From an uncultured Gammaproteobacteria bacterium (lineage in GTDB: Bacteria; Pseudomonadota; Gammaproteobacteria; DRLM01): 64,000 bases of DNA. The position numbers and the translations under genes are program-made. The first letter of the stretch is position 1. Every line of letters starts with the position of its first letter. Positions 5,446 through 33,807 of this stretch are shown in pieces. The stretch lies in contig CAVXFH010000002.1 in the NCBI GenBank assembly GCA_963761035.1, positions 1,738,915 through 1,802,914 on the forward strand, written 5' to 3'. The notes below the pieces were generated by a model. It was given only the letters and a program-made list of their open reading frames with translations, was not told the DNA's origin and searched no databases.

Positions 5446-6813
5446 ATGAAGAAGATTCTTCTTATTAATCCGGCCTACAGCGAGAGTCTCCACTCGAACA
5501 TCAAGGTGCTGACGATTCCCCCTCTGAACCTGGCGATGATCGCGCGTTATACGCCGGAACACTACGACGTAGAGATCGTCGACGAGGCGGTTGAGCATCT
5601 CGACATCGAGGCGCCGGCCGATCTGGTCGGCATCACCTGCATGACGCCGCTCGCGCCTCGCGCCTACGAGATAGCGCAGAGCTTCCGCACGCGCGGCGTG
5701 CCGGTAGTCATGGGCGGTATTCATGTATCCTATATGACGGACGAGGCCCTGCGCTATGCCGACGCGGTCGTGGCGGGCGAGGGCGAGAACTTGTGGCCGC
5801 GGTTGTTGCAGGATTTTGAACAGGGGCGAATGCAGAAGGTATATCGCAGCTGCGATCAGCCTGAAATCGAGAATCTGCGGGCGCCGCGAAGGGACCTGCT
5901 GCGCGGTAAGTATTTCGTGGAGACCGTGCAGACCGGCCGCGGCTGTCCGATCAACTGCAACTTCTGCTCGGTCACGGCATTCAACGGGCCGCGTTACCGC
6001 CTGCGCGATATCGACAACGTGATTAGCGAGATCCATGGGATCAAGTCGAAGCGCATTTTCATCGTCGATGACAATATCGTCGGCGCCGGCATGAAGTACA
6101 TCCGGCGCACCAAGGAGCTGTTCGATCGTCTGCGGGAGTGCGGCAAGGAGTGGGGAGGGCAGACCTGCCTCAACATCGTGGAGCACGAGGACGTACTCAA
6201 ATCGGCGGCGCGCAGCGGCTGCAAGGGCTTCCTGATCGGCTTTGAATCGCTTGACGCCGAGACGATCGGCGCCTTCCACAAGCCGGTCAACCTGCGGGCC
6301 AATACCCGCAACTTCCGGGACGCCATCAAGAAGATACACGATCACGGCATCGCCATCGTCGGTTGCTTTATCTTCGGCGCCGATACCCAGGGCAAAGATG
6401 CGTTTCGGCGCACCGTGGATTTCGTCCTGGAGAACGAGATCGACGCCGTGCAGATGACGCTCGAGACGCCGCTGCCCGGCACGGCGTTCTATCGGCAGAT
6501 GGTCGACGAGCAGCGCCTGCTGCTTACCAATTACCCACAAGACTGGAAACACTACAACATCGTAGAACCGGTGTTCCGCATGAAGGGCATGACCCCGAGC
6601 GAGGCCTATGAGGGCCTATTGAATGCGTATAGCGAGGTATCGTCATTCAAAACCTCTTTGCTGCGCGGTCTGCGGACATTCAGGAAAACGCGCAGTCTAT
6701 TCAGCACGGGTATCTCCTTCTCCTGGAACTATCACGCTTATAAGACGATCAGGAATACCCCGACGCCGCTGGCGGCTTTGGATGAGGCAAATCGCTTGCC
6801 CGTGACTGCTTGA
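5446..6813 (+). CDS. B12-binding domain radical SAM protein (class B rSAM, methyltransferase-like)
   Basis: 455 aa. N-terminal cobalamin-binding Rossmann region (KVLTIPPLNLAMIARY...VGITCMT) followed by a CxxxCxxC rSAM cluster (GCPINCNFCS). RBS GGAGGG upstream. Confidence 0.8.
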   Translation: MKKILLINPAYSESLHSNIKVLTIPPLNLAMIARYTPEHYDVEIVDEAVEHLDIEAPADLVGITCMTPLAPRAYEIAQSFRTRGVPVVMGGIHVSYMTDEALRYADAVVAGEGENLWPRLLQDFEQGRMQKVYRSCDQPEIENLRAPRRDLLRGKYFVETVQTGRGCPINCNFCSVTAFNGPRYRLRDIDNVISEIHGIKSKRIFIVDDNIVGAGMKYIRRTKELFDRLRECGKEWGGQTCLNIVEHEDVLKSAARSGCKGFLIGFESLDAETIGAFHKPVNLRANTRNFRDAIKKIHDHGIAIVGCFIFGADTQGKDAFRRTVDFVLENEIDAVQMTLETPLPGTAFYRQMVDEQRLLLTNYPQDWKHYNIVEPVFRMKGMTPSEAYEGLLNAYSEVSSFKTSLLRGLRTFRKTRSLFSTGISFSWNYHAYKTIRNTPTPLAALDEANRLPVTA

Positions 6814-7332: not shown

Positions 7333-7759
7333 TATTCTCCGCGGTTAAGGCTTTGACTCATGCCCAATTAAGCACGTCGTAATGAGACGTAAAGCTATCC
7401 GTCTTCTTGCGGATAGGCAAGCATAAAATATAGTGGATATTCATTTCTTATTTTCCTCATCGGCGGCTCGTGCAACATACTTCTCGCCGGCGCCGCTACG
7501 AAACCGCGGCGACAATACAGCCTTTACTTGGCCGGTGCAGATTGAGAAGTTGACGGTCCTTGATGTGATTCCGCAAGAGTGGCCGGCCAAGGATGTCATG
7601 CGTAACAATGTACCGGTGCCGATCATCGCCGGTCAGGCGGTTCCATTGATTCCTTGGGAAGTCAACCTCCAGACCAGTGACTGTTCACCCCCATCGGTTG
7701 TAGACTATTTGGAATCGGAAAGTTTGCGAGTGTAGTTCGACCGGGAACTGTATGCCCGA

Positions 7760-7987
7760 TTGTTTGGCCGGGAAAGGAGCGAATTTGTGGAAGTGGTAGT
7801 CAATGGCGAATCGCGCCGGCTCCCGGAAGGAATTACGATAGCGCAATTGCTGGAAACAATGGCCTTATCGGGTAAGCGCCTGGCCGTGGAAGTCAATCTC
7901 GAGATCGTGCCGCGCAGTACCCACGGTGTTCACAAACTGCAACCCGGTGACCGGATCGAGATCGTGCATGCCATTGGCGGCGGTTAG
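7760..7987 (+). CDS. thiS: sulfur carrier protein ThiS
   Basis: C-terminal ...IEIVHAIGGG (GG terminus), ~67 aa core. Likely true start is the GTG at 7787 (VEVVVNGE...). Directly upstream of thiG. Confidence 0.75.
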   Translation: MFGRERSEFVEVVVNGESRRLPEGITIAQLLETMALSGKRLAVEVNLEIVPRSTHGVHKLQPGDRIEIVHAIGGG

Positions 7988-8046
7988 ACTCCTCCCATCC
8001 GGGGTATAATCGCCTCCGTCATATGCTGAAATATTAGGATCTAGCC

Positions 8047-8838
8047 ATGTCACAGACAATCAGCGATCCATTGATCATCGCCGGCGTCGCCTATCGATCC
8101 CGGCTGTTGGTGGGCACCGGCAAGTACCGCGATCTGGAGGAAACCCGCGCCGCGGTCACCGCTAGCGGCGCCGAGATCGTCACCGTGGCGGTGCGCCGCA
8201 CCAATATCGGCCAACAGCCCGGCGAACCCAGCCTGCTGGAGGTATTGCCGCGAGATCATTATACCTATCTGCCCAACACCGCCGGTTGTTACACCGCGGC
8301 AGACGCTATCCGCACCTGTCGCCTGGCCCGCGAGTTGCTGGACGGCCACGAGTTGGTGAAACTGGAAGTGCTGGGCGACGAGAAGACCTTGTTTCCCGAC
8401 ATCGTGCAAACTATCGCCGCCGCCGAAGTCTTGATCAAGGAGGGCTTCAAGGTGATGGTCTACACCAATGATGATCCGATCATCGCCAAGCGCTTCGAGG
8501 CCATGGGGTGCGTGGCGGTGATGCCCTTGGCGGCGCCCATCGGCTCGGGTCTGGGCATACGCAATCCCTACAACATCCTTACCATCGTCGAAAACGCCGA
8601 GGTGCCGATTCTGGTGGATGCCGGCGTGGGCACTGCCTCCGATGCCGCGGTGGCCATGGAACTGGGTTGCGACGGCGTCTTGATGAACACCGCCATCGCC
8701 GGCGCGCGGCAGCCGGTGCTGATGGCCGCGGCGATGAAGAAGGCCATCGAAGCGGGACGCGAGGCCTATCGCGCCGGACGCATTCCTCGCAAAAGATTTG
8801 CCAGCGCCTCTTCACCGGTCGACGGCACGTTTTTCTAA
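8047..8838 (+). CDS. thiG: thiazole synthase ThiG
   Basis: 263 aa, strong ThiG similarity (LLVGTGKY...[16 protein letters not shown]...[15 protein letters not shown]). Confidence 0.92.
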
Positions 8839-8922
8839 AGAAATGGACGCAGAGAACATCTAAATTAGAAAAATAATTTTTTCTCTGTGCGCTATGGTCA
8901 TTTCAGCGCCTGTGCGTTATTC

Positions 8923-22436: not shown

Positions 22437-23615
22437 TCAGGATGCGCGCGGCTTTTCTTCGGGCAGGAACAGCGCCGTCAGATCATTGAGAAAACGCCGT
22501 CCCAACTCGGTGGGGCGGATGGCGTGAATATCCCGGGCGATGAGTCCTTTGCGTTCCGCTTCTTGCAGCGGACCTTCCACTACGGCCAATGGCAGACCGG
22601 TATGCTGGGCGAATACGGCGACGGGAAATCCGTCGTTGAGTCGCAGGGCGTTGAGCATGAATTCAAAGCCGGTCTCATGCCGGGTCAAAGTTCGTTGCTC
22701 GGCGATGCGCAACGGACTTCCGGCCTTGGCGAGATAGTCGCGGGGGTGGCGGACCTTGGCGGAGCGGACGATGCGCTGGGTCTGGGCGCTGCTGATCTTG
22801 GCGTGGGCTCCGGCGCCGATGCCGAGATAATCGCCGAACCGCCAGTAATTGAGATTGTGGCGGCAGCGATGCCCCGCCCGGGCATACGCCGACACCTCAT
22901 AGTGCGCATAGCCCGCCGCGGCGAGCCGCGCCTGACAGGCTTGTTGCATTTCCCACAGCGCCTCGTCATCCGGCAACACCGGCGGCGCGTGGGCGAAACG
23001 GGTGTTGGGCTCAACGGTGAGTTGATAGTGGGATAGATGCGCCGGTTGCAGTGCGACAGCCTGTTCGAGATCGGCGAGGGCTTGCGCCGTGCTTTGCCCG
23101 GGCAGGCCGTACATGAGATCGAGATTGATATTTTCAAAGGCGGCGGCGCGGGCCGCGGCAGCGGCGGCCAGGGCTTCACCGGGTCCGTGAATGCGACCGA
23201 GACGTTGCAGCAGATCGGCGTCAAAGCTCTGCATACCGATGGAGAGACGATTGATTCCTATGGCGCGAAATTCGGCAAATTTGCCCGTCTCCGCGCTGCC
23301 GGGGTTGGCCTCCAGGGTGATCTCTGCGGCGGCGACTAGGGGCAACAACGCGCGCAGCTGCGACAGCAAGCGATCGAGCGCTTCAGGCGAAAACAGACTC
23401 GGCGTGCCGCCGCCGATGAACACCGTTTCCACCGGGCGTCCCCATACCGAGGGTAATTCCTGTTCCAGATCGGCGATCAGCGCATCGACATAGCGTTGTT
23501 CGGGAACGGCCTCTTTGGCTTCGTGGGAATTGAAGTCGCAATAGGGGCATTTACTGACGCACCACGGTAGATGCACGTACAGCGACAGGGGCGGCAATGC
23601 GATGAAGTGAAACAT
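22437..23615 (-). CDS. hemW: radical SAM heme chaperone HemW (HemN-like)
   Basis: CxxxCxxC cluster (CVSKCPYCDF). Start set to the ATG at 23615 (MFHFIALPP...); the track start at 23669 is GTG. Confidence 0.85.
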   Translation of the reverse strand: MFHFIALPPLSLYVHLPWCVSKCPYCDFNSHEAKEAVPEQRYVDALIADLEQELPSVWGRPVETVFIGGGTPSLFSPEALDRLLSQLRALLPLVAAAEITLEANPGSAETGKFAEFRAIGINRLSIGMQSFDADLLQRLGRIHGPGEALAAAAAARAAAFENINLDLMYGLPGQSTAQALADLEQAVALQPAHLSHYQLTVEPNTRFAHAPPVLPDDEALWEMQQACQARLAAAGYAHYEVSAYARAGHRCRHNLNYWRFGDYLGIGAGAHAKISSAQTQRIVRSAKVRHPRDYLAKAGSPLRIAEQRTLTRHETGFEFMLNALRLNDGFPVAVFAQHTGLPLAVVEGPLQEAERKGLIARDIHAIRPTELGRRFLNDLTALFLPEEKPRAS

Positions 23616-23886
23616 GTCGAGGGAGTCGGGGGCAAAAGGGTTACGGCCACGTAACGCAGGCCATGCCACGGCTCCTTGCCGTATACAGGCGTGTCATTTC
23701 AGAGCGCGACCTTATTAGTAAAATCATGTCGTATGAGTTGAGTAAACGACTCCGCCGGACGAGCATTGATAGGCGGCAACATAGCAGCGCCGCTGCGTCA
23801 CGCCACTAGTTTCTACTATGTCCGCTGGGTGGGAGTAAGCTAAGGGGCCAGGTTATTTTCGGCCCCCCAGTTATTCGCTGTGCGTT

Positions 23887-24183
23887 TTACCAGCGTGAGC
23901 GACCGCCGCCACCACCGCCGCGTCCACCCCTGCTCTCCTTTTCTTGAGCCATATTGACCTTGAGGGCGCGCCCATCCACCTCTTTTCCGTTCAGCGCCAA
24001 GGCCTTTTCCGCGGCTTGTTGGCTGGCGAAGGTGATGAAGGCAAAGCCTTTGGAACGACCCGTCTCTCTGTCCTTAATCAGCGCTATATCTTGAATATCA
24101 CCGTAAGCCGAGAACATTTCCCTGAGCTGGGCTTCATCGACCGAGTAGGGAAAATTGCCTACATATAGCTTATTTTGTTGCAT
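23887..24183 (-). CDS. RNA-binding protein with RRM domain and Gly/Arg-rich tail
   Basis: RNP-1/RNP-2 motifs (LYVGNF; KGFAFITF). GGAG RBS 5 nt before the ATG at 24183. Confidence 0.85.
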   Translation of the reverse strand: MQQNKLYVGNFPYSVDEAQLREMFSAYGDIQDIALIKDRETGRSKGFAFITFASQQAAEKALALNGKEVDGRALKVNMAQEKESRGGRGGGGGGRSRW

Positions 24184-24365
24184 GGTAACTCCGATCACGT
24201 AAGTTGAAATTTTTCAAAGGCGGAAACCGCTTTAGTATCTGCCTCATTATGCGGGTGAACACATAACCTCCGAAGATCTCTGCTGGCCAATGACTAGGTT
24301 GTGGCGGGTAGGAAGCTTCGCCCTAAGTGTACCTCGGATGGGGGGCCGGTGTAATCCAGATATTG

Positions 24366-24956
24366 CTAGCCCAGCAGTGCCGCGATGAGCTTACGCAGCG
24401 CCTGGCCGCGGTGGCTCAGGCGGTTTTTGGTTTCCGGCGGCAATTCCGCGGACGAGCAGTTGTGGGTGGGGACGTAGAACACCGGGTCGTAGCCGAAGCC
24501 GTCGCTGCCGCGCGGCGCGAACAATACCCGACCTTCCCAGGTGCCTTGGCAAATAATCGGGGTAGGGTCCTTGGCGTGGCGCAGATATACCATAAGACAT
24601 TGAAAGCGCGCGCGGCGTCGTTCGTCGGTTAGGTCGCCGAGATCGGCGAGCAACTTTTCCAGGTTATCTTTATCCGACGCGGTCTTACCGGCATAACGCG
24701 AGGAATAGATGCCCGGCGCGCCCGCGAGGGCGTCCACTTCCAGGCCTGAGTCGTCGGCGATAACCGGGAGGCCGGTATGCGCCGCGGCATGGCGGGCTTT
24801 GATGAGGGCGTTCTCCACGAAGGTCAGGCCGGTCTCTTCCGCCACCGCGACGGCGAAAGCGGATTGCGGCAACACCTCGAAATCATGGCCCGCGAGGAGT
24901 GCGTTGATCTCCCGGACCTTGCCCGGGTTGCCGGTGGCGAGGACGACGCGCTGCAT
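24366..24956 (-). CDS. rdgB: non-canonical purine NTP pyrophosphatase RdgB/HAM1
   Basis: VLATGNPGKVREI...SGLEVDAL motifs. Confidence 0.9.
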   Translation of the reverse strand: MQRVVLATGNPGKVREINALLAGHDFEVLPQSAFAVAVAEETGLTFVENALIKARHAAAHTGLPVIADDSGLEVDALAGAPGIYSSRYAGKTASDKDNLEKLLADLGDLTDERRRARFQCLMVYLRHAKDPTPIICQGTWEGRVLFAPRGSDGFGYDPVFYVPTHNCSSAELPPETKNRLSHRGQALRKLIAALLG

Positions 24957-24976
24957 GGCAGGGGAGACGCCGGCCG

Positions 24977-25702
24977 CTAGCCGGCGGCCTTGTCGAGCGC
25001 CGCGCGCTGATGACCGATGAGATCGGCGATGCCGCCCTTGGCCAGTTCCAGCATGGCTTGCAACTCTTCCATGCGGAAGGCGTGGCCCTCGGCCGTGCCC
25101 TGTACCTCGATGAAGGCGCCGGCGTCGTTCATTACCACATTCATGTCGGTCTCGGCATTGGAGTCCTCGGCATAATCGAGGTCCAGCACCGGCGCGCCTT
25201 TATAGATGCCCACCGACACCGAAGCCACGTAACCGTAGATGGGGTTCTTGGTGATGAGTCCTTGTTTCTGCATGTGGCGTACCGCATCCACCAGCGCCAC
25301 GTAGCCGCCGGTGATGGAGGCGGTGCGGGTGCCGCCGTCGGCCTGGATGACGTCACAGTCGATGGTAATGGTGCGCTCGCCCAATGCGCTCAGGTCCACG
25401 ACCGCGCGCAGCGACCGCCCGATCAGGCGTTGGATCTCCATGGTACGGCCACCCTGCCGGCCCTGCGCCGCCTCGCGGTTCATGCGTTGACCCGTTGAGC
25501 GGGGCAACATGCCGTATTCGGCGGTGACCCAGCCTTTGCCCGAGCCCTTCAACCAGCGGGCGGACTTGTCCTCCACGGTGGCGGTGCACAGCACCCGGGT
25601 GTCGCCGAACTCTACCAACACGGCGCCCTCGGGATGCCTGGTGTAATGACGGGTCAGTTTAATGATGCGAAGCTGATCGGGTTTTCTGCCGCTGGGCCGC
25701 AT
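24977..25702 (-). CDS. rph: ribonuclease PH
   Basis: 241 aa, full-length similarity to RNase PH ([18 protein letters not shown]...[18 protein letters not shown]). Confidence 0.93.
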
Positions 25703-25848
25703 GGGGGATCCTTAAAAAATTCGTACGAGGGAAGGGGCCGGCATTATAGCCCGCATGCGCGGTCCGAGGCCAACGGCGCGGGCGGGCGGTTTCTAAAATT
25801 TTCCCGCTAAGGGTACTATGGCCTGGTAAATAATATTCGCCGGGGGGA

Positions 25849-26721
25849 ATGAAGATGATTTTCAGCATGACCGCCTTCGCGCGCCGCGAGGGAGAGACCC
25901 CGTGGGGCGTGTTGACCTGGGAGCTGCGCACCGTCAACCACCGTTATCTGGAAATCACGCCGCGCCTGCCCGAAGACTTCCGGGTGCTGGAATCCCAGGT
26001 GCGCGAGCGTATCGGCGCCGCCTTGCAGCGCGGCAAGGTGGAGTGCCAGCTGCGCTTCCAGTCCCTCGCCCAGCAATCCCCCGACTTCGCCCTCAACAAA
26101 GAGCTGATCGCCCGGCTGGTAACGGCGACCGCCGAGGTCGACCGCCTGTTGGCGCAACCGGCGGCGGTGAATGCCCTGGAGATTCTGCGCTGGCCCGGCA
26201 TCATCCAGGCGCCGCAGCCCGATCACGAACAAATGACGGCGGTCGCCATCCGAATTTTGGACGAGGCGCTGGCGGAATTGCAGGCCACACGCGCCCGCGA
26301 AGGCGCCAAGCTCAAGGAGCTGATCCTGCAGCGCTGCGAGGGCGTGGCGGCGCAGGCCGCCGCCGCCGCCCGGCGCCTGCCCGAGGTGCGCGCCCGTCTG
26401 CGCGAAAAACTACTGGCGCGCCTGGCGGAGGTGAAGGGCGAATTGGATCCGATGCGCGTCGAACAGGAGATGGTGTTGCTCAGCCAGCGCCTCGACGTGG
26501 AAGAAGAACTGGATCGCCTCGCCGCGCACCTGGCGGAAGTAAAACGCGTACTCGGCCAGAACGGTCCCGCCGGTCGCCGCCTGGATTTTCTGATGCAGGA
26601 ACTGCATCGCGAGGCCAACACCCTGGGCGCCAAGTCCGGTGACGTGGAGACCACCCGCGCGTCGATGGAGATGAAGGTGCTGATCGAACAGATGCGCGAG
26701 CAGGTGCAGAATATCGAGTAG
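25849..26721 (+). CDS. yicC: YicC/YloC family stress-induced protein
   Basis: N-terminus MIFSMTAFAR matches the E. coli YicC MIRSMTAYA; the ATG at 25855 may be the true start. Confidence 0.85.
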   Translation: MKMIFSMTAFARREGETPWGVLTWELRTVNHRYLEITPRLPEDFRVLESQVRERIGAALQRGKVECQLRFQSLAQQSPDFALNKELIARLVTATAEVDRLLAQPAAVNALEILRWPGIIQAPQPDHEQMTAVAIRILDEALAELQATRAREGAKLKELILQRCEGVAAQAAAAARRLPEVRARLREKLLARLAEVKGELDPMRVEQEMVLLSQRLDVEEELDRLAAHLAEVKRVLGQNGPAGRRLDFLMQELHREANTLGAKSGDVETTRASMEMKVLIEQMREQVQNIE

Positions 26722-26967
26722 AGAGCATAGGGGGCGATGGTGTACAGCCTCTCGAAGCTTCAAATCTAGCATTCCTGATTTTTCTTTCAGATTCGTAAAA
26801 GTTTGTCATGAGACTCTTTTTTTATATCCAATATGTCGTCACAGCGCTACTTTATTCGAAAGAACATTAGCTCGGCATGTTGGTGCTATTGCAGAGTCTT
26901 CCTTGGCAACCAAGAATATACCTGATTGGTTCTTCGGGGTTTGTTGCCGACAAATTGGGTATTCAAA

Positions 26968-29900
26968 ATGAACGCTAAATTGACAAGGTTTCGCATCTTG
27001 TCTTTGCCAGGGGGAAAACTTTTCCTCGGTTTGTTCTTCCTGTTTTCGTGTGTATCCAGCATTAGTGCAGTTGCTGCCGCTAATATTGCCGCGTTATCCG
27101 CGGTGACGGCGTCGTCCGAGACGCCATCCACCGGCCAGCTGGCGATAAAGGCGGTGGACGGAGTAATAGACGGGTATCCCGGGGATTACACCAAGGAGTG
27201 GGCCACCAATGGGCAGGGGGCGGGGGCCTGGATCCGACTGACCTGGCCGACGGCCTACACGGTTGACCAGATCGTGCTGTACGACCGCAAGAACACCACC
27301 GAACAAATTTTAAGCGGGACGCTGACGTTCAGCGACGGCAGCAGCGTGGCGGTCGGCACCCTGGACAATCTCGGCGCACCGAAGACGGTCGCCTTTACCC
27401 CGCGCACCATAACGTGGGTGCAGTTCACGATTAACTCCGTGAAGGCCGGCTCCAGCAACATCGGACTCATGGAGATGGAAGTAGACGGGGTATTGGCGGG
27501 GATCAACACGGCGCCGCAGATCACGGCCGGGCCCACCGCCAGCCCGGCGGATATTGGAGAGAACCAGACCTCGCAGCTGAGCGTGACGGCGACGGACCCG
27601 GAGAATGATGTCTTGACCTACACGTGGGTGCCGCAGAGCGGGACGATCACGGGGAGCGGCGCGACGGTGACCTTCAACCCGCCGGCGGTAACGGCGGACA
27701 CGGTAGTGCGGATCGATCTGACGGTGAGGGACCCGGGCGGCCTAACCGCCACCGGTTTCGTGAACGTCACGGTGCGGGATGTCGTGCAGAGTTCAGTCAA
27801 TATTGCCGCGTTATCCGCGGTGACGGCGTCGTCCGAGACGCCATCCACCGGCCAGCTGGCGATAAAGGCGGTGGACGGAGTAATAGACGGGTATCCCGGG
27901 GATTACACCAAGGAGTGGGCCACCAATGGGCAGGGGGCGGGGGCCTGGATCCGGCTGACCTGGCCGACGGCCTACACGGTTGACCAGATCGTGCTGTACG
28001 ACCGCAAGAACACCACCGAACAAATTTTAAGCGGGACGCTGACGTTCAGCGACGGCAGCAGCGTGGCGGTCGGCACCCTGGACAATCTCGGCGCACCGAA
28101 GACGGTCGCCTTTACCCCGCGCACCATAACGTGGGTGCAGTTTACGATTAACTCCGTGAAGGCCGGCTCGCAAAACATTGGACTCATGGAGATGCAGGCC
28201 TACGGGGTGGCGTCAAGCCGTAAATCAATTATGGTCGTAGTAGCGCACCCGGATGACGAGGCGCTGATGGCGGCCGGGGTGATGAAGCGTGCGCATGATA
28301 ATGGGGACGCCGTGAAGGTTGTGATTATCACCAATGGAGACGCCCAGGGCAAAAATGCGGGTCTGACACGCGAGGCGGAATCCAAGACGGCCGTGGCGGA
28401 CAAGCTGGGGTTGAGCGAGGACGACATCATTTTTCTGGGATACCCGGATTCCGGCTTATTGCCGATCTATAACGACCACCCGAATGCAACGGTTCCGCCC
28501 TACGTGAAGGGATCAACAGGCCAAAGCGCTACCTATGGCAATCAAGGCTTGGGCAGGGAGGATTTTCACAGATACTGGACGGGAGCGGCGGCGGATTACA
28601 ATCAGGCCAACGTCGTGGCCGATCTCAAGGAGTTGCTGAACCGCTATCAGCCCACCCAGATCTACACCCATTCGCCGTTTGATCTGCATTACGATCATCG
28701 CGCGACCTATTACGACTTGCGCGATGCGGCGCAATCCCTGATGAAGGAGCAGGCCACCTTCCATCCGGATGTGTATACCGCGATTATCCATCAACCCTAT
28801 CTTTATCCTTATAAGGACAAATGGGCGCAGGGGACCACCCCCACCTTATCGGTGCTTGACGACAGGGACGATCAATTTTGGCCGCTGCCGGCCTATGGGA
28901 GCGTGGGGACCGCATCCGGCGACCTGACGCTGATGAAGGCCCGGTTTGCCCCGACCCAGGCCCTGACCAAGCCGGCGGATCTGGATCTGACACTACTGGA
29001 CTGGGCAGACCGGCTGAGCCTGCCGGTGCCGGCGGTGATGCAGGATCCCAATGTAGTGAACAACCTCAAATATCAGATGATCGACAGCTATGTCTCGCAG
29101 GAGGCCGTCTGGGGCCTGCCCTTTGCCTTCGGCAAGAGCGACGAGGTCTTCTGGAAGCAGACATGGTCGCGCAATATTGCCCTGCGGGCGACGATCACCG
29201 CCTCCAGCCAGAATACGAAATTCTTCCAGGGGGCGGCAAACGTCGCCGACAGTATTGTGGATGGCTACCGGGACCAAAACAACGATGGGATTTCGGAAGG
29301 CAATAGTCAGGCGGAATGGGTCACAGCGGGCGAGAGAGAGGGCGCCTGGGTACAACTCGACTGGACGCAGCCCTACACGATCAACAAGGTGGTGCTCTAT
29401 GACCGGCCGAATCCGAGTGACCAGGTGCTGTCCGGGACGCTGAGCTTCAGCGACGGCTCAACGGTCAGTGTGGGGGCATTGCCCAATGACGGCTCGAAGT
29501 ATGAAGTGGACTTTGCGGCGCGGGAAGTGAGCTGGGCGCGGTTTACCGTGGATAGTGTGTCCGCCGCAACGGCAAACGTCGGCTTGGCGGAGATGGAGGT
29601 ATGGACGGCGGCGCCGCCGGCTGACAATCAGCCGCCGTTTTTTACCCGCGGCCCGACGGCATCGGCCCTGACGGGCGGCATGAGCTCGACACTCGCGGCG
29701 CCGGCCTATGACAGAGAGGGTGACCCGATCACCTGGACCTGGCAGTCGCAGCTGGGCGCCACGATTACCGGTTCGGGGGACACGGTGACGTATACGCCGC
29801 CCTACGGGGTAGGCGGCACGGATACCGTTACCGTCACGATTTCCGATGGTATCAACCCGCCTATCACGGCAAAGTTTGCGCTGGCATTGGATGAAAACAA

Positions 29901-30321
29901 CATTACCTATTTAGCGCAGGTGACGGCGTCGTCCGAGACGCCATCCACCGGCCAGTTGGCGATAAAGGCGGTGGACGGAGTAATAGACGGGTATCCCGGG
30001 GATTACACCAAGGAGTGGGCCACCAATGGGCAGGGGGCGGGGGCCTGGATCCGGCTGACCTGGCCGACGGCCTACACGGTTGACCAGATCGTGCTGTACG
30101 ACCGCAAGAACACCACCGAACAAATTTTAAGCGGGACGCTGACGTTCAGCGACGGCAGCAGCGTGGCGGTCGGCGCCCTGGACAATCTCGGCGCACCGAA
30201 GACGGTCGCCTTTACCCCGCGCACCATAACGTGGGTGCAGTTCACGATTAACTCCGTGAAGGCCGGATCGCACAACATCGGGCTCATGGAGATAGAAGTC
30301 TTTGGCGCGGCGGGTGACTAG
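26968..30321 (+). CDS. large secreted multidomain protein: signal peptide, 4 discoidin/F5-8-type-C-like carbohydrate-binding domains, 2 Ig/cadherin-like domains and a PIG-L (LmbE) family N-acetylglucosaminyl deacetylase domain
   Basis: 1117 aa from the ATG at 26968 (MNAKLTRFRILSLPGGKLFLGLFFLF...). Deacetylase motifs AHPDDE and HSPFDLHYDH in the centre. Repeated W..G.W..L.W......V.LYDR......SGTL.FSDGS..V..FT..SV.....GL.E.EV modules. Confidence 0.75.
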   Translation: MNAKLTRFRILSLPGGKLFLGLFFLFSCVSSISAVAAANIAALSAVTASSETPSTGQLAIKAVDGVIDGYPGDYTKEWATNGQGAGAWIRLTWPTAYTVDQIVLYDRKNTTEQILSGTLTFSDGSSVAVGTLDNLGAPKTVAFTPRTITWVQFTINSVKAGSSNIGLMEMEVDGVLAGINTAPQITAGPTASPADIGENQTSQLSVTATDPENDVLTYTWVPQSGTITGSGATVTFNPPAVTADTVVRIDLTVRDPGGLTATGFVNVTVRDVVQSSVNIAALSAVTASSETPSTGQLAIKAVDGVIDGYPGDYTKEWATNGQGAGAWIRLTWPTAYTVDQIVLYDRKNTTEQILSGTLTFSDGSSVAVGTLDNLGAPKTVAFTPRTITWVQFTINSVKAGSQNIGLMEMQAYGVASSRKSIMVVVAHPDDEALMAAGVMKRAHDNGDAVKVVIITNGDAQGKNAGLTREAESKTAVADKLGLSEDDIIFLGYPDSGLLPIYNDHPNATVPPYVKGSTGQSATYGNQGLGREDFHRYWTGAAADYNQANVVADLKELLNRYQPTQIYTHSPFDLHYDHRATYYDLRDAAQSLMKEQATFHPDVYTAIIHQPYLYPYKDKWAQGTTPTLSVLDDRDDQFWPLPAYGSVGTASGDLTLMKARFAPTQALTKPADLDLTLLDWADRLSLPVPAVMQDPNVVNNLKYQMIDSYVSQEAVWGLPFAFGKSDEVFWKQTWSRNIALRATITASSQNTKFFQGAANVADSIVDGYRDQNNDGISEGNSQAEWVTAGEREGAWVQLDWTQPYTINKVVLYDRPNPSDQVLSGTLSFSDGSTVSVGALPNDGSKYEVDFAAREVSWARFTVDSVSAATANVGLAEMEVWTAAPPADNQPPFFTRGPTASALTGGMSSTLAAPAYDREGDPITWTWQSQLGATITGSGDTVTYTPPYGVGGTDTVTVTISDGINPPITAKFALALDENNITYLAQVTASSETPSTGQLAIKAVDGVIDGYPGDYTKEWATNGQGAGAWIRLTWPTAYTVDQIVLYDRKNTTEQILSGTLTFSDGSSVAVGALDNLGAPKTVAFTPRTITWVQFTINSVKAGSHNIGLMEIEVFGAAGD
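27082..27476. repeat. intragenic ~395 bp near-identical repeat A (discoidin-like domain 1)
   Basis: Nucleotide-level near-identity with 27799..28193 and 29907..30290; the track also shows triplicated identical minus-strand shadow ORFs. Confidence 0.9.
27799..28193. repeat. intragenic repeat B (discoidin-like domain 2)
   Basis: Offset 717 bp from A; differs at only a few positions. Confidence 0.9.
29907..30290. repeat. intragenic repeat C (discoidin-like domain 4)
   Basis: Near-identical to A and B across ~384 bp. Confidence 0.9.
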
Positions 30322-31034
30322 GAATCGGAGTTTGGCGACATAGAAACCAGAACAATTTGTGACAGTAAAATGTTCTTTCGATGTGTAGTTTGGATTTCAT
30401 TGACTGCGGACACGAAGCGATTGGTGTCAAAATGATTACAGCTTTTGATAATCAATTTGGCGAGGGGGGGAATTTATAGATCACGAATCTTTATGAGATC
30501 GCCCAAGTAATGCGGGACTTAGAAGAGCGTGTTACTCCGGAGACGTCAGGTGAAAGGTGGTAAATACACTTTGCGCATGGAAAGCCGAGTCGGCTAAAAA
30601 GCTGGGGGAAGACTATATTTGCATTTGCGAATATCCCGATTTTTATGTCTACCCAAGTGTGTACCAGTAGCAAAGACCCATTGAAAATTAATTATTATTA
30701 ACAATTATATAAGCAGCTATTCTAGGTTCAGGTGCAACATTGAATGACCTATTGATCTGTCTTGCGAAGTTAGGCCGCCCGTTTAAAAGCCGCTCAAATG
30801 CGGCAGCTTCCGGACAAGAACGGACTTCCAGGTAGCCGCTACGGGAATCCGCTTATCATCTAGTGTAGTGAGTCGTTCTTGTCGGGACATTTATTCGATA
30901 GCGAGCTTTTACGGTATATTGTTTTCTATATGTTCCAGCAAGGTGACTCACTACACTCGTGCGTAAGATCAATAATCTATTTCTGGACCGATGGGTATTT
31001 TAATTAATGGTTAAGCTTCATTTATCAATGGAAA

Positions 31035-31457
31035 ATGGGTGTTTACAATACGCTTTCCCTGGAGCTTATGATTAATAAACACGCTTTACATGAGGCTACC
31101 CAGGTTGACGATCCGAATCGCGTCAAGGCGCTGCTCAAAGAGGCGCCTAATCTTGTTTTCAGCCAGGACTGGAATAACGACACCCCTTTGCATCTGGCGG
31201 CATACTTTGGTTACAGGGATGTCGCCGAATTGCTGCTGACGCATGGCGCGGATGTCAATGCCATTAACAGCTACGGCCGAACTCCTTTGCACAGGGCCGC
31301 GTTTAATGGCCACCAGGACATTGCGAAATTGCTGCTGAAGCATGGTGCCGATATCAACGCCAAGAACAATTTCGTCGATACGCCTCTGCATGAAGCCGTG
31401 GTAAATGGCAGCTATGCCGTAGCGGAATTGCTGCGCCAGCATGGCGGCCACGAATAA
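31035..31457 (+). CDS. ankyrin-repeat protein
   Basis: Three to four ANK repeats (TPLHLAAYFGYRDVAELLLTHGADVNA...TPLHRAAFNGHQDIAKLLLKHGADINA). Confidence 0.75.
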   Translation: MGVYNTLSLELMINKHALHEATQVDDPNRVKALLKEAPNLVFSQDWNNDTPLHLAAYFGYRDVAELLLTHGADVNAINSYGRTPLHRAAFNGHQDIAKLLLKHGADINAKNNFVDTPLHEAVVNGSYAVAELLRQHGGHE

Positions 31458-31699
31458 GCGGCGGTAAAACCTCCAAGCTGCCCCAGGCCGCCCTAGGCAA
31501 TTTATTTCTCGAGCGGCGTTGCGGCAATCGTGTTCCTGAAACAGCAAAAGCCGCTATTCGCGTCCGGCGTCCGGGGACGCAGCGTGCCCCTTCGCAACAA
31601 TAATGGCGCGGTTGAATGCCGACTTCCCGCAATGCTGACTGTTCGATTTCGGAGCGGACTATTGAACAGGGCTGCTTTCGGCCAACTCCAGCCTTACTC

Positions 31700-33061
31700 T
31701 TAATGGAGATCACCGTCTGCTTGCAAAATGATATCTGCCATCCCGATGCGTTCCAGATCGACGTCCCCGTAAGCGGTAACAAGCCGACGAAGACGGGCCT
31801 TCTGGTCTGGGCTTAGCGTTTGATCGCCTCTACCGACGATACCCTTATTAAAGCGCGTCTTCGCGGGATTCCCGTCAACGGCGCGGACAGCAGTCGCGCA
31901 TTCTTCGGAGGTTTTTTTAAGATCGAGAAAGCTGGCAATGCGGGCGATCGTCGCCGGCTTGTCCGCCACCATTTCCTCGTAGGTTACAAAGAGGCAATTC
32001 AGCCGGCCCAGTCGTTGTGCCCGTTCCCAGGATGCATAAAACCCGGCATACCAAGGCATAACATGATCGATGATCAAGTCGTACTTCCCCTGCTCATTCA
32101 GAGTCGGCCAGACATCGCCGAAAAAAGTGTCCGCAACCGCGCCATTATCTAAAAAACTGGAATAACTGATCACGACATCAGGGAGATTTCTCACCAGCAC
32201 GATTGGCCGAATATCAAATGCCTGCAAAATCTGCTCATTCGGCTTGCTCGCGCGGCAATGTTGCTGCGTAACGGTATTTTGGTACGCGCACTGGAGCAGA
32301 TGGGGTAGGTAAATCTCATGCTCGTACTGAATATAGGCGTAGGAAAGATTCGCCTCTTGGCAACCAGTCAGCGTGCACAATACCTCCTTGAGAAACGTCG
32401 AACCGCTTTTCGGCATACAAGCAATCAGCAGGTGCTTGCCCAACTGCGCCGGCGTTATGCCCGGAATAAAATCGCCCAGCACGGCTGGCTGGCCGGAATA
32501 GCCGAGTGCATTCGTCAATTCAATCCTCAAACTTGGATGGCTGGGATCGAGAGCCAGCCCCGTCCGTATCCATTTAATCGCAAGTGGATAATTTCCTCGT
32601 ATGCTTTGTTCCGTTGCAGCTCTGCAAAGCGCGTTTAGGAAATTATTTCGAATCTTTTGGTCATGCGGCGCCAGGGCGTACGCGTCACTGAAGATATTGA
32701 CGGCACGTTCCATATTTCCGGAGCGTATATGTAGTACTCCGAGGTTGCTCATGAAAGTGGCATTTTTCGGTTCCAGCCGCACAAGCTGTTCGCAGCTTAA
32801 TAAAGCGGTCGGGATGTCGCCTGTCGCCATCGACGCGTCGGCAATTTCGACCAGAGTTTTAATTCTGACCCTATCGGCCAGTGACTGTCCCTCACCATCA
32901 ATATCTTCCGCGAGAGCCGTCGGATTCGCCAATGAAATCAAAGAAGGGCTTCCCTTGTTATGAAGCATAGCCAATTTCTCCACAAAATGAATTGAGCCGT
33001 CGCGCACAGTCTGGACAGTCAAGCCATGGAAAATACCGATGCTGAAATACCGCTGCGCCAC
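31700..33061 (-). CDS. TPR-repeat / sulfotransferase-domain protein
   Basis: N-terminal TPR-like region; C-terminal sulfotransferase with 5'-PSB motif (CMPKSGSTFL) and 3'-PB-like motif (LVRNLPDVVISYSSF). Confidence 0.6.
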   Translation of the reverse strand: MAQRYFSIGIFHGLTVQTVRDGSIHFVEKLAMLHNKGSPSLISLANPTALAEDIDGEGQSLADRVRIKTLVEIADASMATGDIPTALLSCEQLVRLEPKNATFMSNLGVLHIRSGNMERAVNIFSDAYALAPHDQKIRNNFLNALCRAATEQSIRGNYPLAIKWIRTGLALDPSHPSLRIELTNALGYSGQPAVLGDFIPGITPAQLGKHLLIACMPKSGSTFLKEVLCTLTGCQEANLSYAYIQYEHEIYLPHLLQCAYQNTVTQQHCRASKPNEQILQAFDIRPIVLVRNLPDVVISYSSFLDNGAVADTFFGDVWPTLNEQGKYDLIIDHVMPWYAGFYASWERAQRLGRLNCLFVTYEEMVADKPATIARIASFLDLKKTSEECATAVRAVDGNPAKTRFNKGIVGRGDQTLSPDQKARLRRLVTAYGDVDLERIGMADIILQADGDLH

Positions 33062-33097
33062 CGGGCACAGCGAAGTTCAACATATGAAAAATGATAA

Positions 33098-33427
33098 TTA
33101 GGCGGGAGAAACGAGGGGTGGTGCGCGGGTGCGACGGTCGGTGCCGATCAACTTTGCCAAACGGAAATGACGTGTATAAAACTCCAACAAACGGACGATT
33201 ACAACTGCCATGGCAAGCATCGCCATGCCCACCAAGGCGTCGCCTAGCGCAGGAACGCTGAGATCAAGAGAATATAAGGCATCGGCGATAGAGCTGATAT
33301 CGCCGATGTCATAGTCGGAAAAATAATAGTTGCTCGCGAACGACGTGGTTTGCCCAACCAACAGCGCTATCACAATGATATAGCTGAAAAATCGGTTCAT
33401 AAGTTCCTGCGACGTTCTCGCGTCCAC
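33098..33427 (-). CDS. hypothetical small membrane protein (doubtful)
   Basis: ORF with two hydrophobic segments; no family; low-GC context. Confidence 0.25.
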   Translation of the reverse strand: MDARTSQELMNRFFSYIIVIALLVGQTTSFASNYYFSDYDIGDISSIADALYSLDLSVPALGDALVGMAMLAMAVVIVRLLEFYTRHFRLAKLIGTDRRTRAPPLVSPA

Positions 33428-33807
33428 ACATTATAGGTGCATTAAGTGATCTTAGAATCGCCTACTAATATATTCAAGTTTTATTACAATCATTTACATT
33501 TGCATGATCGGCGTTAAATCATGTCAACCTATGATAGGTAAGTACCCGTGCCACGATCTATTTAATGATCCGGAAGCCTCGTTGGCGTTCGGTCTGGAAA
33601 AGACATAGCGCCAAAAGTTGTTGACCGATTTCAATTGCTCCCGGGACATTCGCCCTGCGTACGATAACGGGGCGCACTAGGTCGGAAACGGATATTCGCT
33701 ATTTTGAGAGTGCGAAAAATAGTGATGGATATCGGGCCTGCTCAGCTTGTGTTATCCGCGCGATCTGATGCATGTTAGCGGGTATTATGCCTTTGAGACG
33801 GAACTTG

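Follow-up and report, generated by a model that had tools for sequence, protein, structure and literature searches.

Enzymes of the PIG-L/LmbE family (PF02585, carbohydrate esterase family CE14) are zinc-dependent de-N-acetylases, and the known ones (MshB, BshB, BC1534, the archaeal diacetylchitobiose deacetylase and teicoplanin Orf2*) are single-domain, cytoplasmic proteins of ~220–300 aa that act on small glycosides. The exported metal-dependent deacetylases of exopolysaccharides, among them PgaB, IcaB, PelA and Agd3, are encoded in polysaccharide-synthesis loci and belong to CE4 or CE18. Here we describe an open reading frame (ORF) of an uncultured gammaproteobacterium (GTDB lineage DRLM01; assembly GCA_963761035.1, contig CAVXFH010000002.1), located at positions 26968–30321 of a 64,000-nucleotide stretch that we call the window, whose product can be compared with both groups. 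Like the known PIG-L proteins it scores above the Pfam threshold, has the HPDD and HxDH motifs and is predicted to adopt the same fold; unlike them, its PIG-L module is predicted to be exported, has a ~150-aa C-terminal extension, is embedded among lectin-like and immunoglobulin-like (Ig-like) modules, and is only ~15–21% identical to any solved member. The logic that we propose for it is that of PgaB, IcaB, PelA and Agd3, and homologues of the gene sit in loci of that kind, whereas its fold is PIG-L/CE14 rather than CE4/CE18 and the window copy lies outside a polysaccharide locus. By analogy, the protein may work like this class without membership in their families.

The binding modules recall the CBM32/F5_F8 type C modules, such as DD1/DD2 of the Paenibacillus IK-5 chitosanase and the CBM32s of Clostridium perfringens, which are beta-sandwiches carried in multiple copies by carbohydrate-active enzymes, as they are here; the window modules are nevertheless only 16–26% identical to CBM32 and fall in a separate, uncharacterised Pfam family (DUF7402). 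Long in-frame tandem repeats that recombination keeps near-identical, and whose number is documented to vary in populations, are a property of the group B streptococcal alpha C and Rib proteins and of staphylococcal Aap and SasG. The window gene shares with them near-identical in-frame repeats and a copy number that depends on the gene or strain, but its copies lie scattered on both sides of a unique catalytic core and recur in paralogues.

The surroundings of the gene also have a described counterpart. Tyrosine-recombinase islands, including MGIs, SGI1-like elements and Shewanella genomic islands (GIs), are documented to use the 3' end of yicC as an attachment site (PMC8409611, PMC8978831). 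MGIVflInd1, MGIVmi1, SGI1-like integrative elements and the relatives of Shewanella GI21 are 21–37 kb long, with genes for an integrase, an excision factor and mobilisation (PMC8409611, PMC8978831). The window gene lies on an insert that, like these elements, sits in the yicC 3' end between direct repeats and preserves the yicC frame; unlike them it measures 4,020 bp, has one cargo gene and encodes none of their integrase, excision or mobilisation functions. It therefore resembles the yicC islands in site and junction structure and lacks the integrase and mobilisation functions by which they are defined.

Our overall reading, which we think probable although well short of secure, is as follows. 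The ORF would encode a Sec-exported modular carbohydrate de-N-acetylase built on a single PIG-L/LmbE (CE14-type) zinc-hydrolase module, with four CBM32-like DUF7402 glycan-binding modules and two Ig-like spacers arranged around it. Homologous recombination, by gene conversion and unequal crossing-over, would homogenise and shuffle the modules within and between a few paralogues of the same genome, a case of concerted evolution, and this would account for the ~99% DNA identity among three DUF7402 modules. The gene itself would be a recent product of such shuffling (its 5' 1.2 kb equals one paralogue, P0002, and the next 1.8 kb another, P0006), carried by a 4,020-bp segment that, in this strain, became inserted into the final codons of yicC. 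The reaction that we envisage is N-deacetylation of a polymer of the cell's own making, a surface polysaccharide or exopolysaccharide that contains aminosugars, to which the repeated lectin modules would attach the enzyme multivalently.

Architecture of the protein

The ORF and its modules, all on the plus strand, are laid out as follows.

26968..30321, plus strand: ORF of 1117 aa and stop, exported PIG-L/DUF7402 modular protein (export predicted); start ATG, frame intact
26968..27081, plus strand: predicted Sec signal peptide, aa 1–38, with a K/R-rich start, the hydrophobic stretch LFLGLFFLF and AVA-AA just before the first module, judged by eye
27082..27495, plus strand: DUF7402 module A1, aa 39–176; near-identical core 27082–27452
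27496..27798, plus strand: Ig-like spacer 1, aa 177–277, PKD/K319L-like, with sub-threshold matches to PKD_4 and K319L-like_PKD
27799..28212, plus strand: DUF7402 module A2, aa 278–415; core 27799–28169
28225..29202, plus strand: PIG-L/LmbE (CE14-type) catalytic module with family-specific C-terminal extension, aa 420–745
29173..29613, plus strand: divergent DUF7402 module B, aa 736–882
29614..29898, plus strand: Ig-like spacer 2, aa 883–977, Big_9/Cadherin_5
29899..30312, plus strand: DUF7402 module A3, aa 978–1115; core 29919–30266

The ORF listing extends the start to a TTG at 26926, and the database copy of the protein (P0001), which is 100% identical to the window protein, is annotated from an internal TTG. 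Pfam recognises four copies of DUF7402 (PF24135, 662.7 bits, overlapping F5_F8_type_C at 84.6 bits), PIG-L (PF02585) at residues 422–583 (88.8 bits against a cut-off of 28.2), a Big_9/Cadherin_5 match at residues 887–971 and a sub-threshold PKD-like match at residues 180–269; NCBIfam adds a 'NADase-type glycan-binding domain' (NF047619, 88.6 bits). The N-terminus of the paralogue P0002 matches the predicted signal peptide.

Profile, motifs and fold together place the window protein in the PIG-L/LmbE superfamily, and its activity is predicted on that basis. The catalytic motifs are AHPDDE (H427, P428, D429, D430) and DLHYDH (D572, H574, D576, H577). In an alignment of 20 diverse family members H427, P428, D430, D572 and D576 do not vary and D429 and H577 hardly vary, and the motifs align to the matching motifs of TT1542, the sole solved relative detected by sequence alone. 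An AlphaFold2 model of residues 410–745 (pLDDT 85.5) gave 42 Foldseek matches at E ≤ 1e-3, all 42 of the PIG-L/LmbE fold, led by MshB (4ewl, E 9e-9) and including LnmX, BC1534, diacetylchitobiose deacetylase, teicoplanin Orf2* and BshB (E 1e-8 to 1e-6). About 200 of the 336 residues of the catalytic region align to the LmbE fold; the rest is the extension, which is kept in 102 of the 121 sequences scanned.

The model of module A1, built on 29 family sequences, is a CBM32-like beta-sandwich (pLDDT 96.2). Its best Foldseek matches are the chitosan-binding CBM32 modules 4zy9/4zz5, followed by lectinolysin and other CBM32s (E ~3e-7, TM 0.7–0.8), and F-type lectin modules are also among the top matches. 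A sequence search of the PDB with an A module returned chance matches only. In the literature on DUF7402 we found no characterised member; one paper mentions the family and predicts a metal site in it. The original prediction, made from the letters of the DNA, had proposed this order of domains together with the PIG-L and discoidin-like assignments, and Pfam, NCBIfam, the AlphaFold2 and Foldseek results and the conserved catalytic motifs all support it.

Near-identical modules shared among paralogues

The A modules are direct repeats in register that begin at 27082 (A1), 27799 (A2) and 29899 (A3). A1 and A2 differ at two positions in their first 371 nt, both synonymous third positions, and A3 differs from each of them by three substitutions over offsets 21–368 (a 348-nt core); exact matches between the copies extend over at most 188, 120 and 218 nt. 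Divergence in the final ~50 nt of every copy, and also in the initial 20 nt of A3, lowers the identities to 96.4, 93.5 and 94.2% when the entire 414-nt modules are compared. One 26-mer of the repeat is found three times in the window, where chance would predict none. Module B is much further removed: it matches the A copies at ~62% of nucleotides and 43–45% of amino acids. Between the two Ig-like spacers identity is ~65%. That the gene contains three near-identical modules, as originally predicted, is thus borne out, with cores of 348–371 nt that carry two or three substitutions. The third copy exists as claimed but its limits had been set at 29907..30290; the module runs from 29899 to 30312, and its core from 29919 to 30266.

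Beyond repetition within the window gene, the modules are common to several genes, a point that the original prediction missed. A protein search recovered, besides the window gene (P0001), two paralogues on the same 3,019,963-bp contig, P0002 and P0006, neither of which lies within the 64-kb window. P0002 (1350 aa) consists of a signal peptide, A, Ig, A, three further identical Ig units, A, a LamG-like domain and a GDSL esterase, so that the spacer-1 Ig unit is present in four copies, three of them in tandem. P0006 (1379 aa) differs at the N-terminus, where it has a lipoprotein-like start and cadherin-like repeats, and then continues with PIG-L, B and Ig-2 as in the window protein. Residues 1–409 of the window protein differ from P0002 at two positions, and residues 420–1027 differ from P0006 at two positions, which identifies the window gene as a mosaic of both, a fact that the original prediction likewise overlooked. 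In P0006 the last module begins with ~43 A-type residues and diverges from window residue 1028 onward, which places a conversion-tract boundary inside a module. P0006 also ends abruptly at residue 1379, inside its LamG-like (3-keto-disaccharide-hydrolase-like) domain, unlike the orthologue P0003 and an ORF of the locus L001, both described below, which continue past this domain into a GDSL esterase; the early end may reflect a frameshift, pseudogenisation or faulty assembly.

The family is of moderate size yet widespread: a DUF7402 profile, searched against 1.84 billion representatives (clusters at 50% identity), matched 2,979 of them at E ≤ 1e-3, of which 1,824 reached E ≤ 1e-10. Several observations indicate that such homogenisation is a recurrent property of the family. 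All 121 sequences that we scanned have two to eight DUF7402 copies each, and the best within-protein module identity covers a continuous range of 45–100%. Module pairs at ≥93% identity are present in 15 of 120 homologues (~1 in 8), and for 128 of 423 modules the nearest relative is in the same protein. The orthologue P0003, which is 52% identical to the window protein, reads signal peptide, A, Ig, PIG-L, B, Ig', A, Ig, A, LamG-like, GDSL. Among themselves the three A copies of P0003 are 95–96% alike, but they are only 62–67% identical to the window A copies, with copies in equivalent architectural positions, and its B module is 54% identical to the window B.

The closest relative among species-representative genomes (55%) comes from another uncultured gammaproteobacterium, and its locus, L001, contains repeats with a 729-nt period and 95–96% identity. 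A tandem paralogue in the same locus has modules 92–98% identical, the 5' region included. Segment by segment, the 5' regions of the tandem paralogues (103–609 against 7735–8844) are 77–98% identical, most segments at ≥92%, and their C-terminal modules (5686–6733 against 9506–10549) are 85–96% identical; homogenisation in L001 reaches the upstream region and the gene start.

Copies in equivalent positions have therefore been homogenised separately in each lineage, and continuing recombination explains this better than a single recent duplication would. The 'recent duplication or ongoing gene conversion' of the original prediction gains backing from the module-sharing paralogues, the half-converted module of P0006 and the independent homogenisation in P0003 and L001.

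Insertion at the yicC 3' end

The window gene is carried by a strain-specific insertion in yicC, a further point that the original prediction missed. The features of the insert are given below.

26709..30728, no strand: strain-specific insert, 4,020 bp, containing this gene and AT-rich flanks only; absent from L040
26701..26708, plus strand: left 8-bp direct repeat CAGGTGCA, inside the yicC 3' end
26709..26721, plus strand: insert-borne replacement of the last yicC codons, GAATATCGAGTAG, encoding the same ...QNIE*
30729..30747, plus strand: right CAGGTGCA (30729–30736) and displaced native yicC end ACATTGAATGA (30737–30747)
26856..26868, no strand: left arm of a 13-nt perfect inverted repeat, TCGAAAGAACATT, upstream non-coding flank
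30369..30381, no strand: right arm of the 13-nt perfect inverted repeat, AATGTTCTTTCGA, downstream non-coding flank

The empty site was found on a 15-kb JGI metagenome contig (L040), recovered by an exact look-up of the neighbouring RNase PH, in which an ankyrin gene directly follows yicC. L040 matches the window at 22977–26708 (99.73%) and at 30729–31727 (98.7%), and 26709–30728 is missing. At the left junction GAATATCGAGTAG keeps the YicC C-terminus ...QNIE* through different synonymous codons and is identical to the yicC ends of the relatives L078, L041 and L048; at the right junction the native-end remnant ACATTGAATGA is 2 nt shorter than the intact empty-site sequence. The insert contains one long ORF and all others are ≤60 aa. 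Neither the rest of the window nor any of the loci retrieved contains a match to its flanks. Scans for Rfam families and tRNAs gave no match near the gene, and promoter and terminator scans gave background levels.

Three simple routes to this structure were considered and rejected. A target-site duplication made by a transposase does not account for the first 13 nt of the insert, which, unlike a random transposon end, reproduce the yicC terminus of relatives. Deletion between the 8-bp repeats as the origin of the empty site would give ...CAGGTGCAACATTGA (EQVQH*), not the intact QNIE* of L040. Homologous replacement anchored in yicC would leave a donor tract, and none is visible inside yicC in comparison with L040, the last mismatch being at 26319, ~390 nt upstream. 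The 13-nt inverted repeat brackets the ORF and is of a length reached in 2 of 1000 shuffles; no target-site duplication adjoins it. As judged from the sequence, the junctions would fit a circular or linear donor that recombined at 8–11 nt of identity in the yicC terminus.

Whether this recombination was illegitimate or homology-facilitated, or was instead the site-specific act of a degenerate or trans-mobilised yicC-targeting integrative element at the 8-bp core, concerns the insertion only. The site-specific route is attractive given that the yicC 3' end is a known attachment site (PMC8409611, PMC8978831), that both junctions fall at the same 8-bp sequence, that a yicC-like terminus on the insert restores ...QNIE*, that yicC shows no donor tract and that related genomes have other cargo directly after yicC, including HNH and RhuM/Fic genes. 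It is opposed by the shortness of the 8-bp repeat, by the loss of 2 nt from the remnant, which makes the junction an imperfect reciprocal product, by the absence of any integrase, excisionase or oriT from the insert and from those neighbouring ORFs that were scanned (within ~15 kb these are housekeeping genes), and by the lack of a second yicC-end remnant in L078 or L044. We regard site-specific insertion as possible, but less likely than not.

The downstream side of yicC appears to be variable in general. In relatives with 82–91% YicC identity a POT transporter gene lies within ~150 nt after yicC, and the whole interval 26722–33771 of the window is therefore best regarded as a variable islet. 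In two relatives whose YicC is 91–93% identical the cargo after yicC is different, which marks this side of the gene as a variable hotspot in the clade: L078 (422–7421) has an HNH endonuclease, a RhuM/Fic protein and three ORFs without a family, and L044 (7868–9474) has a class-V aminotransferase. Within the window, a lower-GC islet at 30729–33771, between yicC and the POT transporter gene, contains an ankyrin-repeat protein (31035–31457), a TPR-sulfotransferase (31700–33061, minus strand) and a 109-aa ORF without a family. The GC content at third codon positions is 0.77 in the window gene, close to the 0.79–0.84 of host genes, and lower (0.57–0.61) in the ankyrin and TPR-sulfotransferase genes. 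A sulfotransferase near a de-N-acetylase recalls the logic of eukaryotic N-deacetylase/N-sulfotransferases; the adjacency is probably coincidental, because the sulfotransferase predates the insertion. Elsewhere in the window, in surroundings that are otherwise housekeeping, two minus-strand ORFs (16187–17317, 377 aa; 60360–61769, 470 aa) have no Pfam match at E ≤ 1e-5.

Gene neighbourhood and substrate

We used the neighbours of homologues as a guide to the substrate, surveying, for 22 homologues from many phyla, the three ORFs that lie closest on either side (128 ORFs altogether). Glycosyltransferases make up 31 of the 128 (~24%; Glycos_transf_1 21, Glycos_transf_2 10), and Polysacc_synt (3), Poly_export (2) and hexapeptide transferases (4) are also found. 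Genes of the Wzx/Wza type are present around homologues as well. P0003 lies in a cluster of rmlC, wzm/wzt, glycosyltransferase and acetyltransferase genes, beside another DUF7402 gene; P0004 adjoins exosortase EpsH/EpsI, GT4, GT2 and DegT genes; and P0031 adjoins a 2438-aa PIG-L/DUF7402 paralogue, GT4 and GT2 genes and insertion sequence (IS) elements. At the P0031 locus (L122; 2583–9899 and 15261–21893) the 2438-aa protein combines DUF7402, PIG-L, PKD-like, CLIPPER and beta-lactamase-family domains, and several transposase genes (DDE_Tnp_1, ISL3, rve, DDE_3) are interspersed in this polysaccharide locus.

The location of homologues in polysaccharide-synthesis loci favours the cell's own surface polysaccharide or exopolysaccharide as the substrate, and of the three substrates originally suggested (own exopolysaccharide, host glycan or chitin-like material) it is the first that gains support from these neighbourhoods. 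Orthologues fuse the same modules to a GDSL/SGNH esterase, which suggests paired de-N- and de-O-acetylation of one polymer. On this evidence the window protein would be a deacetylase that is exported and anchored multivalently to its polymer, and its role would be to edit a surface polysaccharide or exopolysaccharide of the cell that makes it.

The main rival is the same enzyme directed at an exogenous target (chitin or chitooligosaccharides, peptidoglycan or the glycans of other organisms) for nutrition or competition. It owes this standing to the closest lectin folds, since the best matches of the A module are CBM32s that bind chitosan; the solved PIG-L relatives also include diacetylchitobiose deacetylases and BC1534, and the window copy and two of the five homologues checked individually lie away from polysaccharide loci. 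The neighbourhoods nevertheless have a biosynthetic rather than a catabolic signature, with ~24% glycosyltransferases together with flippase, export and exosortase genes, and no chitinase, glycoside hydrolase or sugar-uptake genes stood out in the neighbour survey. An exogenous target therefore strikes us as rather doubtful, though it deserves to be kept in view beside the cell's own polysaccharide.

Other explanations for the repeats

One-off recent duplications could in principle have produced A modules that are simply young and undiverged, with no continuing conversion. The differences between copies are indeed few and mostly synonymous, and three sequences are too few to reveal phylogenetic incompatibility. 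Duplication alone fits poorly with the fact that two A positions (at the N-terminus and after Ig-2) are common to the window protein and P0003, yet the modules are 94–97% alike within each protein as against 62–67% between them. It fits no better with the last module of P0006, which is half A and half other where the corresponding window position is fully A-type, or with identical A cores that are bounded by diverged ends. We consider one-off duplication unlikely, and prefer homogenisation by continuing recombination.

The original prediction went further and proposed that the repeats are a switch for repeat-number phase variation, in which RecA would expand or contract the array, or delete the catalytic core, at a frequency sufficient to yield functional subpopulations. 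Exact runs of 120–218 nt are ample substrates for homologous recombination, every possible deletion stays in frame, and the expanded array of P0002 (four identical Ig units and three A modules) indicates that copy number has changed in this genome. The same spacings, 717, 2100 and 2817 nt, are all multiples of three, however, so that recombinants would be in frame and shorter rather than switched ON or OFF. The possible deletion products are of 878, 417 and 178 aa, and the latter two could not revert, since they lose the unique 2.1-kb catalytic core. No allelic variant of the window gene, with another repeat number or otherwise, was found in a collection of ~15 billion proteins, where its cluster has one member, and repeat copy number differs between paralogues only. 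A pattern that recurs across many phyla also resembles slow concerted evolution rather than a tuned switch. The gene is not a classical phase-variable locus, as recombination between its repeats would give no ON/OFF switching, and the proposal of repeat-number phase variation is not supported by the in-frame spacings or by public protein data; we think it very unlikely. Least credible of all is an assembly artefact, in which the repeats and perhaps the mosaic gene would come from mis-joined paralogous reads in one long-read assembly: one assembly only carries the gene, kilobase-long identical segments common to three genes are hard to assemble, and the stop inside the LamG-like domain of P0006 is a possible frameshift error, but each copy has private substitutions, the 3.35-kb frame is intact with spacings at exact multiples of three, independent assemblies of other organisms show the same phenomenon, and the insert has clean junctions that make biological sense, one with the yicC end restored and the other with a remnant of it.

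Discussion

Several points weigh against the reading that we favour. The signal peptide was assigned by eye from the sequence, the tracts of conversion between genes are read from protein sequence alone, the gene comes from a single source assembly, and three copies cannot formally separate ongoing conversion from very recent duplication. As to the substrate, the window copy lies outside any polysaccharide locus, as do P0057 and P0107, and the chitosan-binding modules that head the matches of the A1 model would fit exogenous chitin or chitosan equally well. In the literature on CE14/LmbE enzymes with binding modules, or in exopolysaccharide modification, we found no characterised relative.

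A broader hypothesis would join the separate parts of this account. DUF7402 modules may serve as recombination handles through which catalytic domains (PIG-L and the GDSL de-O-acetylase) and spacer arrays are swapped among paralogues, thereby diversifying the editing of the cell's own surface polysaccharide, and the freshly assembled mosaic gene may be a minimal, integrase-free 4-kb cassette that carries a mimic of the yicC terminus and was inserted in trans at the yicC attachment site of large mobilizable islands. Taken as a whole this is a speculative proposal, and we would not expect it to hold in full.

The window gene is a clean natural example both of concerted evolution of dispersed modules across paralogues and of a short insertion with one gene at the yicC hotspot. 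Both are familiar types of event, and the practical value of the analysis lies in annotation and in a pointer to a testable enzyme family. The PIG-L and DUF7402 proteins, in some cases with GDSL, form a family that is widespread, tightly linked to polysaccharide-synthesis loci in many phyla and uncharacterised. Acetylation of polysaccharides affects the properties of biofilm matrices, phage receptors and immune recognition. If our reading is correct, the family would constitute a class of polysaccharide-acetylation editors with the PIG-L/CE14 fold, whereas the enzymes known to act in this way belong to CE4 and CE18.

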